A stretch of 52,818 nt of DNA from Candidatus Daviesbacteria bacterium (GTDB lineage Bacteria > Patescibacteriota > Microgenomatia > Daviesbacterales > UBA10151): NCBI GenBank assembly GCA_016183245.1, contig JACPEY010000033.1, positions 1 through 52,818 on the forward strand, in the 5' to 3' direction. The notes beneath the pieces are model-generated. The model searched no databases, was not told the origin of the DNA, and worked only from the letters and a program-made list of their open reading frames with translations. Shown one piece after another: positions 2,247-46,699 of the stretch (position 1 is the first letter of the stretch; each line of letters opens with the position of its first letter). The translations under genes were made by a program, and so were the position numbers.

Positions 2247-3572
2247 CTAAGAGCTCATTAGCTTTTGTTTGATTTCAATGAACATCCTTTGTACTTCCCT
2301 ATCCTGATTGACCAATTTTTTAATTTTATCCCTGCCGTGCATAACAGTTGTATGATCCCGTTTACCTAACAGTTGTCCTATTTTTTCCACAGTTAAATTT
2401 AATTGTTCACTTAAGATAAACATAGTAATATGCCGCGGCAAAACCAGTTCTTTTTGTCTTTTTGCTCCGGTTAAATCTTTCTGGTTTAGGTTAAAATATT
2501 CACAAACTGTTTCCAGAACTTTTTTGGGTTCAATCTTAATATTACTTTGCTGGATGGATTTAGTCTGAAGATGCTTGCCAATATTCTCCGGCGTAGGAGG
2601 CAGGTTTTGAACTTGCAGGAGTTGTAGTATTCCAACGAGTTGTCCTTCCAACTCCCTTATATTGGTTTCAAAAGAAGCAGCCAACATTTTTAAAGTTTCC
2701 TCCGGCAGGTTTGCTTTGTGCTCCAGGCATTTTGACCGCAAAATTGCAACCCTGGTATCAAAATCAGGTTGTTGGATATCAATCATCAAACCTCCGACAA
2801 ATCTGGACTTTAACCGGTCTTCCAGTTTGGGGATTTCGTGCGGAGATCTGTCTGAGGTTAAAACTATCTGGCTGTTTTTACCAATAAGCTCATTAAAAGT
2901 ATGAAAAAACTCTTCCTGGGTTCCTTCGCGGCCGGAAAAAAATTGAATATCATCAACCAGCAGTACATCTGCCAGGCGGTATTTGGCCCGCAAATCTCCC
3001 ATTTTGCGGGTTTGGATGGCTGCAACATAGTCATTCATGAATTTTTCTGAAGGAGAGTAGATAATTTTGGCATGAGGTTTTTTATCCAAAATAGCATTGC
3101 CGATGCCGAGCATCAGATGTGTTTTTCCGACACCTGTACCGCCATAGATAAATAAAGGGTTGTAAGATGTGCCGGGGTTTTGGACAATTGCCTGGGCTGC
3201 CGCATAAGCTACATTATTAGAGGGACCAACTACATAGTTTGATAAAGAATATTTGGGGTTTAAGACAGAAACTGCAGCTTGAATAGGCTGGAAAAAATCC
3301 TCTTCTTTTTCCTCTGTCTGTTTTTCTGCTTCTTTAACAATAAATTCAACCGCTACACTTTTTCCCAAAAGATTGGCAAAGCCGGTTTCTATAATAGGCA
3401 GGTATTTTTGGCTCAAAGTTTCTTTAACGAAAGCATGAGGGGTGGAAAGTACTATTTTGTCATCTGAGCAGCTTTTTAAAGAAGCTTTTAGAAACCAGGC
3501 CTTGTAATTGACAGGGCCTACTTGGGATTTGATGGTTTCTAAAAATTTGTGCCAAAGGCGTAAATTGTCCAT
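2247..3572 (-). CDS. dnaA: Chromosomal replication initiator DnaA
   Basis: Walker A GGTGVGKTHL, AAA+ core, and C-terminal DNA-binding helix region (HTTVMHGRDKI). I prefer the ATG at 3572 (MDNLRLWHKF) over the track start at 3602, because the extra 10 codons are made of two perfect DnaA boxes. Confidence 0.95.
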   Translation of the reverse strand: MDNLRLWHKFLETIKSQVGPVNYKAWFLKASLKSCSDDKIVLSTPHAFVKETLSQKYLPIIETGFANLLGKSVAVEFIVKEAEKQTEEKEEDFFQPIQAAVSVLNPKYSLSNYVVGPSNNVAYAAAQAIVQNPGTSYNPLFIYGGTGVGKTHLMLGIGNAILDKKPHAKIIYSPSEKFMNDYVAAIQTRKMGDLRAKYRLADVLLVDDIQFFSGREGTQEEFFHTFNELIGKNSQIVLTSDRSPHEIPKLEDRLKSRFVGGLMIDIQQPDFDTRVAILRSKCLEHKANLPEETLKMLAASFETNIRELEGQLVGILQLLQVQNLPPTPENIGKHLQTKSIQQSNIKIEPKKVLETVCEYFNLNQKDLTGAKRQKELVLPRHITMFILSEQLNLTVEKIGQLLGKRDHTTVMHGRDKIKKLVNQDREVQRMFIEIKQKLMSS

Positions 3573-3573
3573 T

Positions 3574-3601
3574 GTGGATAAGTCAAAATCAGTTATCCAC
3601 A
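3574..3601. promoter_or_regulatory. Pair of perfect DnaA boxes immediately upstream of dnaA
   Basis: TGTGGATAA at 3574-3582 and TTATCCACA at 3593-3601, convergently oriented. Confidence 0.7.
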
Positions 3602-3703
3602 ATTTAATTCACATTATCCCCTCTTTCAATATGGAGAAACTATAAATAAGTAGATCAAGTTTGTGTTGATTATAAAGATTATAACAGTTATAATGTTTAT
3701 ATT

Positions 3704-6919: not shown

Positions 6920-7433
6920 GTTTTTTAACAGCCAGTCCTCTCATGCTGATGGAATTTTTTTCTTTTAGGGTCATTTGGGCAAAGGTTTTATTGTAGCCTT
7001 CCGGCATAAAAATATCATTCCATCCAAAACTCTTATCTCCTTTTGGCGAGACGATTTCTCCTTTGATTTCTCCGCTGAAAAAATGGATATTATTTTTATC
7101 TTTTGCATAACCGATGATTGTTTTGGCCAAAGCCTTGCTATTATCCAATTTATTTGTCAGTTTATATAAACCAAAACTTCCAAGTTTTTGCAAAAACCAC
7201 TTTATTAAAGGCCCGGGTAAACCGTTTAAACAATCCAGATAAAGTGATGTATCCTCAACAATAAATTCTCCGCTATGATGCAAAAAAGCCTCTTTTAATT
7301 TTTCCGCTATAATTTTTTCAGCATCAGTTTCCTGCAGTTCGGGTAGTGCAATATTAAGCTGTTTTAACTCCGGCATTAAATCCTGCATTTCTTTAAACTT
7401 ATGTTTGCTGCCGGTAATAAAGTATAAAGCCAT
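6894..7433 (-). CDS. rdgB: Non-canonical purine NTP pyrophosphatase (HAM1/RdgB/ITPase family)
   Basis: FITGSKHKFKE..., EDTSLYLDCLNGLPGP, FGWNDIF, and SMRGLA near the C-terminus. Confidence 0.85.
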   Translation of the reverse strand: MALYFITGSKHKFKEMQDLMPELKQLNIALPELQETDAEKIIAEKLKEAFLHHSGEFIVEDTSLYLDCLNGLPGPLIKWFLQKLGSFGLYKLTNKLDNSKALAKTIIGYAKDKNNIHFFSGEIKGEIVSPKGDKSFGWNDIFMPEGYNKTFAQMTLKEKNSISMRGLAVKKLKQFLQKN

Positions 7434-7476
7434 ATCAGGAGTATATCATCTATGAAGCATATAATTTGTTTATTAT

Positions 7477-8922
7477 CTAAGGATCTTTTGTAAACAGTTC
7501 CTCATAATCAATTCTCTCTCCTGCAATCACTTTTTTTTGTAATTCAGTAGCCGAATAAGCTAGTTGCTCGCAACGGGCATCTAATAGTTTTTTGATCGGT
7601 CTGGCTATTTCATCGTAATTTTTAGGGCAGAAGCTATTTTTACCGTGTCTGCTAATAGGTTTATAGGATGTAGAGAGTCTATAGAAAACGTCAGGGAAAT
7701 CAAGTGATTCATTTAGAGCTTCCGAGAGGATTTTGCTCTTTTTTTCCGGATCAAGATTGGGGTTATTTGCAACCCCGTTTTGAAATGCCGCCAGTATTCT
7801 AGGTATTCTTTGTTCAACTACCTCTCTTAGCATATCAACTATATTTTGCAAAGGAACTGTAACGCCTTCCATGGCTTTTAAAGCTAGAGAATCTGCGTAT
7901 TCTAATTCTGCTAATCCGTTTAAGCAGGTGCTAAATGATTCTCTGGCATATTGTTGCGCAGAATAGTATTCGCCGTAGGTAATCCGAGAAGCAAAAAGTA
8001 TGAAATCTTTCCAGAATCTTACGGTTCGCCTTTTTACATTCAGATAATTTTCTCCTTGGTAATCTTTTTTCCACCGCTTTACATCGCTTATTATAGGAGA
8101 CCCTTTTTTTAAAAAAGCATTAATTAGATATGCTTGAGCGGGAGTTAAAAAAGTTATGATATTTTCAATCTCTTCCGGGGTTTTTCCGGCTACAACTAAT
8201 GCTCTGTGTCTTTCTCCTAAATACCTCATCTGATATTTTGATCTTTCAAGTTCTTCAAAAATCACTTGCTCCCAGATTGTTTTTGTAGTTCCAGAACCAG
8301 AAAGCGCTCTTCGGTATGACTCGATATCTTCCTCTAGCGCTGATTTATAACATCCTTCTTTACCAAAGTATATTTCATGATTGATACTTCTTATGTAAAG
8401 CCAAGATTGAGAATCTTGTCTGCTGGTAATATATTCTTCTGTGATTGCCTGAAGTTCGTCAAGATATGTGCCAACCAAATAAGTCAGACCGCCTTTAATA
8501 AGCCTTCTAAAGCCATGTATATCCCCCGCATTTAGAAGTGTTTCGATTGCCAAAGTTGATTGATCCTGCAGTCTTTGTTTATTTGCTAGCCAATCTTCTA
8601 CTGAAGCTGGTTCTTTGCAGAGGTACTGAGGATGAAAGTAGCTATATTTCTGATGTCTTCTTTCATGAGAAACGCTCTGAGGAATATTATGACGAAAATC
8701 AGGATCATCATTTACCAAAAAGTATGGAGCCTTAGCTCCTTCTATAGAAATAAGATACCTTTCAGAAGAAGATCCGATTACGTTAGTCCTATTATGGGGA
8801 TCCTTCCTAAGTTCGTAGAAAGGATCTTTTCTTACTAATATCGCAAGAGAGGTTGGGTGTATCGATATTTCCATGATATCTTCTATACTGCATCCAAGTG
8901 AAGTTGCCACAATTTCATCCAA
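7477..8922 (-). CDS. Hypothetical protein (ORFan), probable downstream part of a frameshift-fused gene
   Basis: Long open frame whose track start is a TTG. The frame stays open upstream to the stop at 8971-8973. No motif I recognise. Confidence 0.6.
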   Translation of the reverse strand: MDEIVATSLGCSIEDIMEISIHPTSLAILVRKDPFYELRKDPHNRTNVIGSSSERYLISIEGAKAPYFLVNDDPDFRHNIPQSVSHERRHQKYSYFHPQYLCKEPASVEDWLANKQRLQDQSTLAIETLLNAGDIHGFRRLIKGGLTYLVGTYLDELQAITEEYITSRQDSQSWLYIRSINHEIYFGKEGCYKSALEEDIESYRRALSGSGTTKTIWEQVIFEELERSKYQMRYLGERHRALVVAGKTPEEIENIITFLTPAQAYLINAFLKKGSPIISDVKRWKKDYQGENYLNVKRRTVRFWKDFILFASRITYGEYYSAQQYARESFSTCLNGLAELEYADSLALKAMEGVTVPLQNIVDMLREVVEQRIPRILAAFQNGVANNPNLDPEKKSKILSEALNESLDFPDVFYRLSTSYKPISRHGKNSFCPKNYDEIARPIKKLLDARCEQLAYSATELQKKVIAGERIDYEELFTKDP

Positions 8923-9227
8923 TTTATCCGGATCTTTTTTTGAATCTTTGATGCTTTTTGTAAAGCTTTTCTATGTTCAACCAGAAAAGGTAAAGCTGTG
9001 GTTAAAACGGTTGATTGCCTTGCAGACAAAGGATAATTTAATTCCTGCAAGAACCGGTCTACATTGTTTCTATCTAACCGGTGGCTGTTTTCAAATAATT
9101 TTCTAAGTTCAGCAACAACTTCGGGTCCACGAAGAATTCCTCCGAATCTGTAATTTGTCGTATCCGCGCTTTCGCCAGGTTTAGGTCCAACTCTAAAAAA
9201 TCCAGACTTTTTTTCTCCCTCAGACAT
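8883..9227 (-). CDS. Hypothetical protein (ORFan), upstream part overlapping the 481-aa frame
   Basis: 114-aa ORF with an ATG start. It overlaps the next frame by 40 nt and contains A_AAA_AAG at 8934-8940 in the zero frame. Confidence 0.55.
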   Translation of the reverse strand: MSEGEKKSGFFRVGPKPGESADTTNYRFGGILRGPEVVAELRKLFENSHRLDRNNVDRFLQELNYPLSARQSTVLTTALPFLVEHRKALQKASKIQKKIRINWMKLWQLHLDAV

Positions 9228-9305
9228 ATTAAGTGATTCCTATCAGTGATAGTGGCAGATTATATACGCATTGTGCTTAGGATTCAACTTGGATAGAATG
9301 GATAG

Positions 9306-10568
9306 ATGCAAAGTTTAATTAAAATTTCCCAGCAAACTATTTGGCAGGTTTTGGGGAAAGCGGTTACTTCCCTGTCTACCTTTATTATATTAGGGCTGGT
9401 TGCAAGAAATTACGGCCCCAACGGAACAGGTATTTTTACTCTGGCACTTACATACCTTGCGATATTTTACCTTCTGGCGGATTTTGGATTTAATGCCCAC
9501 GAACTAAAAAGAGTCAAGAGACTAGAGTCAAGAGATAAGGAATGGAATAAATTGTTGGGGACAAGGGTGGTTTGGTCTGGCATTTTGATTATTTTGGCAA
9601 TAGGGCTATTACCTTTCTGGCCTTTTGCTACAGCGCAGTTTAACACAGCAGTTTTTATAGGAAGTTTGGCAATTGCGGCTTCAGCAATATTTATAACCTG
9701 TAATTTAATTTTTCAAAGTAAATTAAGATATGACTTGTCTGTAATTGCTTCTAGTATTGGCACCTTAGTTGGGTTGGTAATTACAGTTTGGTTAATAAGT
9801 TCCCGCTTCCCTGTTTCCCAGATTATCCTGGGTCATTTAATAGGATGGGTATTCATAGCAGCCAGCGCGCTCATTTTATGCGGAAGATTGCTTCGTTCCT
9901 TCGCTCCTCGCAATGACAAACAAGAAAAGTTTCCCAGTTGCATTGGGAAACCAATTATTGATTTATCATATGCCGCTAACTTGTTTAAGCAGTCTTGGCC
10001 AATTGCTGCAACATTGTCTTTAAATGTTTTATATTTTCGGGCAGATTCTTTTTTAATAGCTTATTTTAAATCCGTCTCAGATGCAGGAATTTATAATGTA
10101 GCTTATTCTTTTTTTCAAACTGCTTTGGTTTTGCCGACCTTTATTATGAATGCTTATTATCCTTTAATGTTAAAATCTTTAGCTAAAGTAAAAGTGATGG
10201 GACTTAGTTTACTGGGGATATCCTTGCTCGGGACCGTCCTTACTTTAACTGCTGCGCCTTTAATCATTAAGATTTTGACTGGTGGTGGTTTTGCCGGTTC
10301 AACTTTGTCTTTGCAGATTTTATCTTTAGGTTTTCCGGCTTATTTTTTATCATCGCTTTTAATGTGGATTTTTGTGGCTAAAAATAAGTATAAAACCTTG
10401 TTTTTGCTTTACACGTCCGGGACGATTTTCAACATCTTATTAAATATTTTCTATATTCCAAAATATTCTTATATAGCTTCATCATGGATTACCGTGATTT
10501 CAGAATATTTTATTTTGATTTTGCAGATTATGGTATTATGGTTTGCAGAAAGCAGGTTCAAGAGATGA
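9306..10568 (+). CDS. MOP-superfamily polysaccharide/lipid-linked oligosaccharide flippase (Wzx/MurJ-like)
   Basis: 420 aa with ~12-14 TM helices and the typical N-terminus (QQTIWQVLGKAVTSLSTFIILGLVAR). Carries in-frame repeat fragments at 9511-9535 and 9884-9917. Confidence 0.7.
   Translation: MQSLIKISQQTIWQVLGKAVTSLSTFIILGLVARNYGPNGTGIFTLALTYLAIFYLLADFGFNAHELKRVKRLESRDKEWNKLLGTRVVWSGILIILAIGLLPFWPFATAQFNTAVFIGSLAIAASAIFITCNLIFQSKLRYDLSVIASSIGTLVGLVITVWLISSRFPVSQIILGHLIGWVFIAASALILCGRLLRSFAPRNDKQEKFPSCIGKPIIDLSYAANLFKQSWPIAATLSLNVLYFRADSFLIAYFKSVSDAGIYNVAYSFFQTALVLPTFIMNAYYPLMLKSLAKVKVMGLSLLGISLLGTVLTLTAAPLIIKILTGGGFAGSTLSLQILSLGFPAYFLSSLLMWIFVAKNKYKTLFLLYTSGTIFNILLNIFYIPKYSYIASSWITVISEYFILILQIMVLWFAESRFKR
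9884..9917. repeat. Half copy (right arm) of the GTCATTGCGAG-type palindromic repeat inside the flippase CDS
   Basis: AGATTGCTTCGTTCCTTCGCTCCTCGCAATGAC matches the right arm of the copy at 47445-47522. Translated as LLRSFAPRND. Confidence 0.7.
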
Positions 10569-25690: not shown

Positions 25691-26206
25691 CTATATTGCT
25701 ACCTCTTCAAAAGTATCAGTTCCTGTTTTGTCCTTGCCTGTAAACTTATAAAACCTTCCTTTTTGCTGCAAACAGCGGTCGGAAAATAAAATCCCGTTTA
25801 AATGATCTATCTCGTGCTGGAATATCCAGGCCAAAACCCCTTTTAAAGGCACAGTAACAGTTTTTCCGCTCTCGTCCTGATAGGAAACTTTAATAGAAGT
25901 ATATCTGTTTACCTCTGCCCACATATTCGGCACAGACAAACAGCCTTCAAAATATTTTTTGGTTCTTTTACCCGTTGATAAAATCCTGGGGTTAATAACA
26001 GAGATAAAATCTTCTCCGTCTTTGGCCACAAAAAAACTGCCTTCAAGGCCGACTTGTGTAGATGCCAAACCTACTCCCTCAGGGTCTTTAAAAGTTTTAG
26101 TAAGTTTTACCATCTCTTTTAAAGTCTGAACTAATCCGGGGTTAATTTTTTTAACTGGTTTGGTCTGAACCCGCAGTTTGGGATCAGGCGCTTTAACTAC
26201 ATGCAT
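25691..26206 (-). CDS. def: Peptide deformylase
   Basis: GVGLASTQVG, EGCLSVP and HEIDHLNG motifs. Confidence 0.95.
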   Translation of the reverse strand: MHVVKAPDPKLRVQTKPVKKINPGLVQTLKEMVKLTKTFKDPEGVGLASTQVGLEGSFFVAKDGEDFISVINPRILSTGKRTKKYFEGCLSVPNMWAEVNRYTSIKVSYQDESGKTVTVPLKGVLAWIFQHEIDHLNGILFSDRCLQQKGRFYKFTGKDKTGTDTFEEVAI

Positions 26207-43775: not shown

Positions 43776-44102
43776 ATGTTTAAAATTGTCACTTTTGTGC
43801 CGGTTGCTGATGCCCAAAAAGTAAGAATGGCTATGGGGGATGCCGGAGCAGGAGTTTTGGGAAATTATCATCATGCCTCTTTTTCTACCAAAGGGGTAGG
43901 AAGGTTTATTCCGGGAAAAGGTGCAAAACCGGCAATTGGAGAGATCGGGAGATTGGAAGAGGTGAAGGAAGAAAGAATTGAAGTAATTTGCCGGAAAGAA
44001 AAAGTTAAGGATGTAGTGGCAGCAATTAAAGCAGTTCACCCTTACGAAGAAATCCCTCTGGAAGTTTATCAATTGATAGATGTAAATGATGGAGTAGCAT
44101 GA
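43776..44102 (+). CDS. COG3323/YqfO-C-like (NIF3 cap-domain-like) small protein
   Basis: MFKIVTFVPVADAQKVRMAMGDAGAG...YHHASF...G.F.P...A.P.IGE...EE.RIEV...VHPYEE. Confidence 0.55.
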   Translation: MFKIVTFVPVADAQKVRMAMGDAGAGVLGNYHHASFSTKGVGRFIPGKGAKPAIGEIGRLEEVKEERIEVICRKEKVKDVVAAIKAVHPYEEIPLEVYQLIDVNDGVA

Positions 44103-45073
44103 GCAACTAAAAATTGTCCTCGATTACAGGCAAAAGTAGGAATACGATTCGTTAGAACTGGATCTAACATTGCCCTGAGAATGCTTGGTAATTGTTGAGG
44201 CAGACTCAGGATGCCAGTTATCCTGTCTACTGTAAAGCCAGCTTTGCAAAGAGCTTGATATAATTCTGGAGAAGTAAAGTTATAATAATATAATTTTTCT
44301 TTTTCACCATTAAGGTCATGATATCCGGAGCGGAAGTTTCCTCTGTGTTCATCTGGGAATGTACCAATTACTAAAGAAAATATATCAGCAGGATGACGCC
44401 GGATATCTCGTCCGGTAGCCTTTAGGTTATAAACAGACATTGCCAGATGTCCCTCTGGAGTTAAGGAATTTTTTATATCAGTTAAACACGCAACATGCGT
44501 CTCTGGTTTGAGGTGTTCTAATACTTGAGCAAATAAAGCGACATCAAACTTTTTAGGTTGAAGCGGCAAAGCAGTGGCATCAGCAACAACGTAGTCAATT
44601 CTACTTGCCACATCTGGAGGAAGAGTGGTTTGGGCTATTGTAGCGTTTAAAAGTAACATCTCGGGAGAAAGATCAATAGCTACTACTTGTCCTGCTCTTT
44701 GAGCCAGATCATGCGTATATCGTTTGCCAGGACCGGCTCCTATATCTACTACCACGGTATGCGAAGAAAAATTAACTCCTTGATATAATGCCTTTCTTTC
44801 TTGTTTTGTTTCATAAGGAGCTTTAGTCTTTTCATAACCAGTAGCGTCTTCGTCCCGGGCTGTTTGTTCAGAAAGTGAATGCAAACTAAGGTGGGGGGGC
44901 AACAAAAAGGCTATTCCGTCTTGTATTGGGTAAGCTGTTTGACAATCAGGGCAACATAATCGGGCCTTAAATATCCGTGATCCTTGCCATTCGGCACCGG
45001 ATATATCGTCTTGACCAAAGGGTCGCCTGTCTGTTGGACATGCAAGTTTATTTGTGATAGTTTCCTCTTTCAT
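44069..45073 (-). CDS. Class I SAM-dependent methyltransferase with an N-terminal Cys-rich (Trm112-like) zinc-ribbon
   Basis: VVDIGAGPGK motif I, DVALFAQVLEHL, and N-terminal CP...CCPDC. Confidence 0.8.
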   Translation of the reverse strand: MKEETITNKLACPTDRRPFGQDDISGAEWQGSRIFKARLCCPDCQTAYPIQDGIAFLLPPHLSLHSLSEQTARDEDATGYEKTKAPYETKQERKALYQGVNFSSHTVVVDIGAGPGKRYTHDLAQRAGQVVAIDLSPEMLLLNATIAQTTLPPDVASRIDYVVADATALPLQPKKFDVALFAQVLEHLKPETHVACLTDIKNSLTPEGHLAMSVYNLKATGRDIRRHPADIFSLVIGTFPDEHRGNFRSGYHDLNGEKEKLYYYNFTSPELYQALCKAGFTVDRITGILSLPQQLPSILRAMLDPVLTNRIPTFACNRGQFLVAHATPSFTSIN

Positions 45074-45120: not shown

Positions 45121-46071
45121 CTAGCGGAGCGGTGGCAGATTGATCAGTTGGACTTCCGGTTCTAAGGTGATGCCGAATTTTTCTTTGACTTTTTGGGTAT
45201 AAGCTTTGGCTAAATTATAAAAAGCTTTGGCTGTGCCGGTGCCGCTGTTAATAAATAAATTAGCATGGTAGTCAGCTATTTTTATGCCGTCTACAGATTG
45301 ACCTTTGGCACCAACTTCTTCAAGGAGAGCTCCTGCAGTTAATTTGCCGTACACAATTTTTTCCGGCGGGATTTTATCCAAAATCTCTTTGGGTAAAGTT
45401 TCTGCAATGATGTTTTTAAAAAAGCTTCCGGGGCATTTTATGCCGGGAGGATATTTGACAAACCTTTTCCAGGTGATTTCTTTTTCCTCCATCTGCATTT
45501 TTTCTAAATCTCCTTTTTCCAGCTGAAATTTTGCTTCCAGGATGATGTATTTATTCTTTTTGAAAATGCTGTTTCGATAGCCGAAATTACAATCTTTATT
45601 GCTAAATTGCTCAGTAGTTAAACTGTGAGGATTTAAAACAGTGACAGAAATAAGATGATCAGAAATAGTCTGGCCGTAAGCTCCGGCATTGCCGTAAACT
45701 GCCCCACCAACTGTCCCGGGAATTTTGGTCAGTTTTTGCAAACCTGCCAGATTGTGGATGATAGCATAATCAACCAGGTCTTGTAATTTAGTGCCGCTTT
45801 TTACGGACACCTGGGAGATGGGCTTTGGCTCCTCCCAGGTGGATATACCACTAATTTCATTTTTAATAACCAGAGAATTTACTCCTTCATCTGAAACCAA
45901 TAAATTGCTGCCAGCGCCAATTATAAGATATGGTATTTTTTGACTGACGGCATATTCAATGGCTTCTATTAAGTCTTTTTCAGTTTTGACTGTCACAAAC
46001 TTTTTGGCCGGTCCACCGATTTGTAAAGTTGTGATATTTGAAAGAGAGTAACTATCCTTGAAATTTAGCAT
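45121..46071 (-). CDS. murB: UDP-N-acetylenolpyruvoylglucosamine reductase
   Basis: TTLQIGGPAK, IIGAGSNLLVSDEG, GGAVYGNAGAYG, PGSFFKN. Start moved to the ATG at 46071. Confidence 0.9.
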   Translation of the reverse strand: MLNFKDSYSLSNITTLQIGGPAKKFVTVKTEKDLIEAIEYAVSQKIPYLIIGAGSNLLVSDEGVNSLVIKNEISGISTWEEPKPISQVSVKSGTKLQDLVDYAIIHNLAGLQKLTKIPGTVGGAVYGNAGAYGQTISDHLISVTVLNPHSLTTEQFSNKDCNFGYRNSIFKKNKYIILEAKFQLEKGDLEKMQMEEKEITWKRFVKYPPGIKCPGSFFKNIIAETLPKEILDKIPPEKIVYGKLTAGALLEEVGAKGQSVDGIKIADYHANLFINSGTGTAKAFYNLAKAYTQKVKEKFGITLEPEVQLINLPPLR

Positions 46072-46699
46072 TATTGTTTTCTGCCAGATGGGCATGGTCA
46101 TTCCAGGTAATAAGATGCCAGTCGTTATTTTTATTTTCACAAATAGTTAATCCGCTGGTTTCAATCTCTAAGAATCTATAAGCACGCAGTAAAATTTCTG
46201 AATTTAAATTTTCTTTCAGCATCATAGCTAAAACAACAGCCTGAATAAAAACAAGGTGTGTGACTACTAAAATATGCTCGTAATTTAGAGATTCCAGATA
46301 TTTTATAAAATCTAATGCTCTTTTTTTAAAGTCATAAAAATTTTCTTCATCAGAATAACGCCAGTTAGGTAGATGGAATTTTTTATCCATTTCATTTTTT
46401 ATTTTTATAACTTCCGGATCACCCTGAAATTTACCCGCAATTTCAGAAGGCCTTCTAATCTCAGTTACCAGGTCAGAATATATTACTTCTTTTTTAAGAT
46501 GCTTATTTATAACTTCAGTTGTCTGCATGGTTCTTTTAAATGTACTGGAAATAATTATCTCTATAGGTAAAGATTTGATTCTTTCTGCAGCTATTTTTGC
46601 CTGTAGTTTCCCTTTCTCCGTTAAGGAAAAATCCGGATGTGAATAAAGCTTTCGGACATTATGATCACCTTCACCGTGGCGTACAAAGTAAACTTTCAT
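46052..46699 (-). CDS. Histidine phosphatase (phosphoglycerate-mutase-like) family protein
   Basis: VYFVRHGEGDHN (RHG motif), and VVTH later in the protein. Confidence 0.8.
   Translation of the reverse strand: MKVYFVRHGEGDHNVRKLYSHPDFSLTEKGKLQAKIAAERIKSLPIEIIISSTFKRTMQTTEVINKHLKKEVIYSDLVTEIRRPSEIAGKFQGDPEVIKIKNEMDKKFHLPNWRYSDEENFYDFKKRALDFIKYLESLNYEHILVVTHLVFIQAVVLAMMLKENLNSEILLRAYRFLEIETSGLTICENKNNDWHLITWNDHAHLAENNNAKFQG

Follow-up and report, generated by a model that had tools for sequence, protein, structure and literature searches.

Contig JACPEY010000033.1 of a Candidatus Daviesbacteria genome assembly (GCA_016183245.1), the 52,818 nucleotides (nt) of which form the window analyzed here, carries on its minus strand two overlapping open reading frames (ORFs), ORF-A and ORF-B, that meet at a run of seven adenines overlapping the heptamer A_AAA_AAG. 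The corresponding public hypothetical proteins of 114 and 477 amino acids (aa) are, as judged from homologues and a structure model, fragments of one 583-aa gene and should be merged or flagged as frameshifted. We favor, with somewhat better than even confidence, the explanation that a natural insertion/deletion (indel) change from A8 to A7 has occurred in a dispensable, lineage-specific accessory gene, and that the arrangement does not represent programmed recoding. The elements of the junction are the following.

7477 to 9227, minus strand: the whole gene, one 583-codon coding sequence with a 1-nt deficit in the A run, called as 114 aa plus 477/481 aa.
8883 to 9227, minus strand: ORF-A, with an ATG start and 114 aa; codons 1-98 correspond to the true N-terminus and are followed by 16 out-of-frame codons (IRINWMKLWQLHLDAV) and TAG.
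8934 to 8941, minus strand: the A7 run (8935-8941) and the adjoining G (8934), the site of an A7/A8 length polymorphism.
7477 to 8970, minus strand: the -1 frame, open from just past the TAG at 8971-8973; GAT (8934-8932) onward encodes residues 99-583.

On the minus strand ORF-A reads ...AAG ATT CAA AAA AAG ATC CGG... at the junction, and A_AAA_AAG, at plus-strand positions 8934-8940, lies in the X_XXY_YYZ register of this zero frame, which stops 16 sense codons past the heptamer (IQKK, then IRINWMKLWQLHLDAV). The -1 frame translates after the TAG at 8971-8973 as KSFTKSIKDSKKDPDKLDEIV... and runs to 7477; its first start-type codon is TTG 8922, no ATG, GTG or TTG occurring earlier. A -1 slip at the heptamer gives a 583-aa product, the junction peptide of which is ...ASKIQKKDPDKLDEIVATSLGCSIEDIMEISIHPTSLAILVR. 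A preliminary description of this DNA had reported the heptamer register, the -1 entry into a 481-aa frame, a fusion of about 583 aa, the zero-frame stop 16 codons on and a 481-aa frame that lacks an ATG at its head and is open back to the TAG, and each of these details is confirmed by the sequence.

The evidence that ORF-A and ORF-B encode a single polypeptide comes from distant homologues and from structure prediction. An exhaustive HMMER search of 1.84 billion representatives returned 20 proteins at E ≤1e-3, 15 of them at E ≤1e-10. These homologues are 23-30% identical to the fusion, and the full-length members, of ~560-670 aa, are all single ORFs that align in one stretch over fused residues ~27-520, across residues 98/99, as in these examples.

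P0124: 662 aa, E 3e-35, query residues 27-517.
P0125: 661 aa, E 1e-32, query residues 28-520.
P0128: 663 aa, E 9e-25, query residues 27-392.

The N-terminal motifs RGP, Y-LS-Q and EHR-A of ORF-A are kept in the relatives (alignment A1). In the same alignment, the zero-frame side of the junction (...EHRKALQKASKI) fits the family pattern EHR.A...A.., the -1-frame side (DPDKLDEIVATSLGC) fits the pattern.DP..L...VA..LGC, and homology puts the frame switch between ...HRKALQKASKIQKK and DPDKL.... Since both sides of the junction match family patterns, the switch is confined to a few codons around the A run. An AlphaFold2 model built on alignment A1 had a mean predicted local distance difference test score (pLDDT) of 81.3 and a predicted template modeling score (pTM) of 0.81. 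Residues 30-140 were modeled at pLDDT 87-96, with helices 69-98 and 100-111 flanking the junction; prediction from the single sequence was unusable (pLDDT 39.6). In this model the N-terminal 98 residues are predicted to be an integral part of the fold. Taken with the homologues, the model indicates that ORF-A and ORF-B are one gene encoding a single polypeptide, bearing out the earlier proposal that the two are fused at the A run.

Close orthologues (>30% identity) in other species were not found in our searches. Neither part nor the fusion matched a Pfam, NCBIfam, PHROG or PADLOC family (E <0.1), and sequence and profile searches of the PDB gave no match. Protein searches by word index, whether the query was the fusion or the family alignment, recovered the window's own protein only. 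The fusion scanned against genome contigs, and a DNA pattern allowing any run length searched in metagenome contigs, were likewise without matches.

The run differs in length among other assemblies of the same sequence. We compared alleles in Logan per-run assembly contigs, which are consensus sequences, from the run series SRR121133xx-4xx and SRR43434xx. In the 90%-identity cluster, 8 contigs encode the 114-aa protein and 4 the 477-aa protein; a single member, P0003, has 583 aa and is residue for residue the predicted -1 fusion. The contig that encodes P0003, L003 (SRR12113431), carries A8 (CAAAAAAAAG) and aligns with the window over 2,268 columns with 0 mismatches and 1 gap, being otherwise identical over 2,267 nt. 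This allele gives one continuous 583-aa ORF, counter to the programmed -1 frameshift that the preliminary description had put forward. A7 is present in the window and in seven other independently assembled Logan contigs, six of them listed as L001, L002 and L004-L007 (SRR12113384, SRR12113385, SRR12113424, SRR12113429, SRR4343428 and SRR4343430), further similar places having been reported but not listed. The sampled populations thus carry both alleles, with A7 in most.

A7 occurs on two haplotypes, that of the window and a variant type. Five of the six listed A7 contigs (L001, L004-L007) represent the second haplotype, which differs by 9-13 single-nucleotide polymorphisms (SNPs), all outside the gene. 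Contigs L002 and L003 end at 9338, just before a SNP cluster at 9339-9396, and are not assignable to either haplotype; a break at this position suggests that both haplotypes coexist in those samples. The cluster lies at the 5' end of the flippase gene (Polysacc_synt, 9306-10568, plus strand), where the window and L001 and L004-L007 differ by nine substitutions in 58 nt. Beside it, the 1.75-kb gene and the remaining shared sequence are identical or nearly so, and the patch looks like a product of local recombination or a hypervariable segment.

Runs of at least 7 nt were compared between the contigs and the window in 37 instances, among them three invariant A8/T8 runs. A single length difference was found, at the A7/A8 site, and it goes in the frame-restoring direction, which is modest support for A8 as a genuine allele rather than a random error. 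Because A7 recurs across independent assemblies and on two haplotypes, it too is real and not an assembly error. We give very little credence to the possibility that A8 is present everywhere and that A7 is a systematic sequencing or assembly artifact. Homopolymers are known error hotspots and one assembly does have A8, but the window and seven independently made per-run assemblies, drawn from two run series, all have A7, the 36 other compared run instances show no length difference, and no other window gene is broken at a homopolymer. In a scan of both strands of the 52.8 kb for frame switches at A/T runs of ≥7 nt and G/C runs of ≥6 nt, the A7 at 8935-8941 was the only run joining two long frames (99 codons upstream, 485 downstream). 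With only one frame-breaking homopolymer in the window, the assembly is not generally prone to indels. The preliminary description had named a homopolymer error in a single gene as its alternative; the single gene and the change in run length stand, and the sequencing or assembly error does not, A7 being recurrent on both haplotypes.

The mechanism we propose begins with an intact form that would have read CAA AAA AAA GAT (A8), the poly-A tract coding for a Lys-Lys linker. Lys-rich linkers in AT-rich genomes naturally yield A runs, which are mutational hotspots. Replication slippage that dropped one A, presumably in the direction A8 to A7, would produce CAA AAA AAG ATC and place the remainder of the gene in the -1 frame. 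The heptamer A_AAA_AAG would then be a by-product of losing one A from A8 in that register, not an evolved signal, and the odds of that register, given the ancestral frame, would be one in three. An indel in the run, if that is how the frameshift arose, would of itself put run and junction at one place. Finding A_AAA_AAG perfectly in register where two ORFs meet is accordingly weak evidence for programmed recoding, because the loss of one base from A8 yields exactly that sequence.

The A7 allele would be frameshifted and largely or wholly inactive. A -1 tandem slip of tRNA-Lys, or insertion of an additional A by RNA polymerase, would nevertheless regenerate the exact A8-encoded protein, and some full-length protein, in a small and non-programmed share, may still come from A7. 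Such leaky expression is plausible given that A_AAA_AAG is slippery by nature and that RNA polymerase can slip on the run. In E. coli, A_AAA_AAG is present in 68 genes, and slippage there is normally unproductive (PMC9307594). Insertions during transcription are mostly of a single A or T in homopolymer runs, and they become exponentially more frequent as runs lengthen (PMC5574713).

The view that A7 is itself the functional form, with -1 frameshifting or RNA polymerase slippage setting the ratio of 114-aa to 583-aa product, appears improbable to us. A_AAA_AAG is the most efficient bacterial -1 shift site. Here it is in the right register, a -1 slip on it gives precisely the family-type protein, A7 is the prevalent length in different samples and haplotypes, and ORF-B has no ATG at its head. 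An in-register A_AAA_AAG is not unusual by itself in the window, however, where 38 in-frame A_AAA_AAN heptamers occur in ~15,400 codons of genes and 13 of these, in ordinary genes, are A_AAA_AAG. The A8 allele needs no recoding, and the 114-aa product would be a fragment of a modeled fold that crosses the junction, making an independent role unlikely.

The signals that accompany programmed sites were also sought. Measured against dinucleotide shuffles, the 60 nt downstream of the heptamer had a minimum free energy of -6.3 kcal/mol (shuffles -9.2, z +1.08) and the 100 nt downstream one of -12.4 kcal/mol (shuffles -17.6, z +1.81). These segments fold worse than the shuffles and hold no stimulatory RNA structure; the sole downstream element is a weak hairpin of 6 bp lying directly against the heptamer, with zero spacing. 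By inspection, no GGAGG- or AGGAG-like (Shine-Dalgarno-like) element was seen in the 25 nt upstream (CTTTACAAAAAGCATCAAAGATTC). No conserved overlap or heptamer exists among the relatives, which are single ORFs across the junction. At the DNA level, L094 has an in-frame A8 (GCA AAA AAA ATG) 2-3 codons from the aligned junction within an intact 662-codon ORF, and L095 has no run near the aligned junction, where it reads TAC AAA CAA GAC.

The likeness to dnaX and to the orfA-orfB pairs of insertion sequence (IS) elements had led the preliminary description to propose folding the 60 nt downstream and comparing related loci. The fold gave no stimulatory structure and the two-frame arrangement with its heptamer is not conserved in the relatives, so that, with IS features lacking as well, dnaX- or IS-type programming is not upheld. 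An IS3/IS1 element was considered and rejected, the gene showing no transposase domains, no terminal repeats and a normal base composition. Searches of Pfam, NCBIfam and PHROGs gave no match to transposase, HTH or DDE domains, and around 7400-9300 neither terminal inverted repeats nor target duplications were seen, the only pairs being imperfect, scattered and 14-22 nt long. The gene is single-copy in the window, and its GC content, 0.37, is like that of neighboring genes. Scans of the window for Rfam families and tRNA genes gave no match.

If the two ORFs were instead a functional split gene, ORF-A and an ORF-B product restarted at TTG 8922, GTG 8910 or ATG 8875 would reassemble into an active complex. 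Gene callers do place a GTG start for the 477-aa product, ORF-B holds the HExxH motif and most of the predicted fold, and Shine-Dalgarno signals are weak or absent in this genome, so the lack of one does not exclude internal starts. We nonetheless judge a split gene quite doubtful. The cut would fall between two confidently modeled helices that pack as one unit, and no relative is split at the junction. At the candidate starts the duplex energies, -3.1 to -3.3 kcal/mol where the background averages -2.1, give no distinct ribosome-binding signal, and any 1-nt deletion gives the same overlap.

The genomic setting of the gene bears on whether it can be dispensed with. The window carries dnaA, tsaD and an aminoacyl-tRNA synthetase gene and is therefore chromosomal, and its GroEL is 90% identical to the GroEL of Candidatus Daviesbacteria metagenome-assembled genomes. 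The gene sits between the flippase and HAM1 genes, with cell-envelope polysaccharide genes nearby (the flippase and an O-antigen ligase-like gene). In L089-L092, with HAM1 69-72% identical, the flippase-HAM1 slot is empty, consisting of a 55-62 nt spacer; in L088, the closest relative (83% identical), the slot is occupied by an ORF of 452 aa that is unrelated and lacks a Pfam match. With the slot (window 7434-9305) empty or differently filled in relatives, it is a variable one, and the gene inserted there is lineage-specific and probably dispensable. Other family members are single ORFs amid housekeeping genes.

In one family locus, L099:2188-4185 (GCA_964564535.1, CAZMBH010000035.1), a TAG in frame (context ATT AAA TAG TCT), at a position that is Glu in relatives, divides the ORF into pieces of 269 and 394 aa; a nonsense pseudogene and a sequencing error are the two possibilities. 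Another member, P0127 (L098), has 352 aa and is truncated at the C-terminus. From their sequences, some members of the family appear to be decaying.

Upstream of ORF-A lies a candidate promoter.

9259 to 9287, minus strand: promoter-like site TTGAAT-17-TATAAT, lying 32 nt before the ATG of ORF-A.

With 10/12 matches to the consensus, a consensus match only, it is joint best in the scanned region, and it lies inside the 78-nt divergent spacer common to this gene and the flippase gene. Elsewhere in the window, a TATAAT-like box stands ~7-12 nt from the start of many genes (for example 14040; 25691-26206, minus strand; 44069-45073, minus strand; 46052-46699, minus strand), and Shine-Dalgarno pairing of the window genes is weak, not exceeding the background (median duplex energy -1.5 kcal/mol, background -2.1). 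Together these features suggest that leaderless or short-leader mRNAs are frequent in this genome of the Candidate Phyla Radiation (CPR). The genes dnaA and probably dnaN (2247-3602 and 313-1413, both minus strand) lie ~4-6 kb from the gene, which places the variable slot near the presumed replication origin; the order rnpA-yidD-yidC-jag...dnaA-dnaN is also found in L089.

Several observations weigh against the inactivating indel that we favor. Only one short-read contig shows A8, and A7 predominates, being present in the window, in 7 of 8 other assemblies and on two haplotypes. No second lesion is seen in the 1.75-kb gene, which has a good promoter-like site, and an intact A7 gene is also what a maintained allele, slippage-expressed or phase-variable, would be expected to look like. 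The product of a -1 slip is exactly wild type, so functional rescue may be possible. The sampled strains are at least 99% identical and their SNPs all lie outside the gene, so that the ratio of non-synonymous to synonymous substitution rates is not computable. Finally, the slipperiness of AAG is governed by the Lys tRNA set of the organism, and a tRNA-Lys(CUU) would lower it. We assign a small but real share of probability to the A7 allele being kept through slippage (ribosomal -1 or RNA polymerase +A), through reversible A7/A8 switching, or both, with low or stochastic expression as the outcome.

Phase variation, in which slipped-strand mispairing would toggle the tract between A8 (ON) and A7 (OFF) and so vary an accessory zincin-like protein, possibly one acting at the surface or in host interaction, is in our estimation possible though unlikely. 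Both tract lengths occur in the same groundwater run series in otherwise identical sequence, the single length difference among the 37 runs sits at the site that toggles the ORF, the variable slot is beside cell-envelope polysaccharide genes, and the OFF alleles carry no secondary damage. On the other hand, a tract of 7-8 nt is borderline relative to the typical 8-9 nt or more; in the contingency loci of Neisseria, Campylobacter, Helicobacter and Mycoplasma, tracts of 7-8 nt would be among the shortest to switch at high frequency. The ON state was observed once only, five other runs of ≥7 nt in or beside the gene, including an A8 at 7531-7538, are invariant, and other family members show ordinary decay by nonsense codon and truncation. 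Loss of one A in an accessory gene remains the explanation we prefer.

The protein itself carries a motif that is conserved in its family.

8632 to 8667, minus strand: HExxH-x6-H motif HERRHQKYSYFH, residues 188-199, zincin-like.

Among the 15 relatives that cover the motif, HExxH is present in 14, the exception being P0142, and all 15 have a third His, which follows the second by seven residues; P0141 is gapped in this region. The AlphaFold2 model places the HExxH helix after a beta-sheet (residues 118-173). The predicted protein thus carries the two elements of a zincin-like motif, HExxH and a putative third metal ligand, and it is this motif that suggests a hydrolase function. In Pfam, NCBIfam, PDB and Foldseek searches the protein resembled no known metallopeptidase family, by sequence or by structure; the best Foldseek E-values were 0.11 (PDB) and 0.28 (BFVD), with no match below 0.1. 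The ~20 representatives at 50% identity may constitute a new zincin-like family, and in the loci examined its members come from uncultured groundwater and environmental bacteria, including CPR.

One relative, P0141 (157 aa), has the N-terminal ~100 residues of the family joined directly to a segment beginning RILLWAKENNIS... (alignment A1). This segment resembles a C-terminal module of ~50 residues, with an LLWAK motif, found in long members; the window protein is without this module.

To our knowledge, no earlier contingency or compensatory-slippage locus has been documented in CPR (Patescibacteria). Should phase variation or slippage-maintained expression prove true, the locus would give a first view of how genes are stochastically expressed by ultra-small episymbiotic bacteria, as well as a handle on an uncharacterized HExxH family.

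Several known systems resemble this locus in part. E. coli dnaX (tau/gamma) has the identical A_AAA_AAG in the zero-frame register, but dnaX also has a Shine-Dalgarno-like stimulator upstream of the heptamer and a stem-loop downstream, both of which are missing here. The shifted frame of dnaX stops almost at once and gives a shorter product, whereas here it opens 485 codons; moreover, the protein here is unrelated and the shift site is not conserved in relatives. The orfA-orfB genes of IS3 and IS1 elements share the layout of a short ORF overlapping a long -1-frame ORF, with A_AAA_AAG in the overlap and a long ORF that lacks an ATG of its own. In contrast to these elements, the present gene has no transposase domain or terminal repeats, is single-copy with a composition like its neighbors, and has homologues that are single ORFs in housekeeping contexts.

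As in the contingency genes of Neisseria, Campylobacter, Helicobacter, Haemophilus and Mycoplasma, a 1-nt difference in a coding homopolymer toggles the full-length ORF, and the gene is an accessory one beside cell-envelope glycan genes. The tract here differs in being short (7-8 nt) and in having been observed ON once, and we know of no established case of phase variation in CPR bacteria.

The remaining parallels are with homopolymer frameshift alleles that slippage may rescue, and transcriptional slippage at A/T runs is established in endosymbionts (PMC5009743). Frameshifted genes at poly(A) tracts are described in Buchnera and Blochmannia, a 'savior indel' combined with low-level compensatory frameshifting is described at G7 of herpesvirus thymidine kinase, and productive transcriptional slippage occurs at A9 in Thermus dnaX and IS elements (Atkins et al. 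2016, PMC5009743) and at A11 in Citrobacter tssM (PMC4256274). The present gene is like those of Buchnera and Blochmannia in having a one-base indel in an A run of an otherwise intact gene in an AT-rich reduced genome. It is like the compensatory-slippage cases in that an additional A in the mRNA, or a -1 slip, would restore the exact wild-type protein. It differs from the documented examples of productive transcriptional slippage, with runs of ~9 or more, in having A7, and from the Buchnera, Blochmannia and savior-indel genes in that it appears to be dispensable and not essential. The case is thus of a known kind, a homopolymer frameshift polymorphism in an accessory gene.

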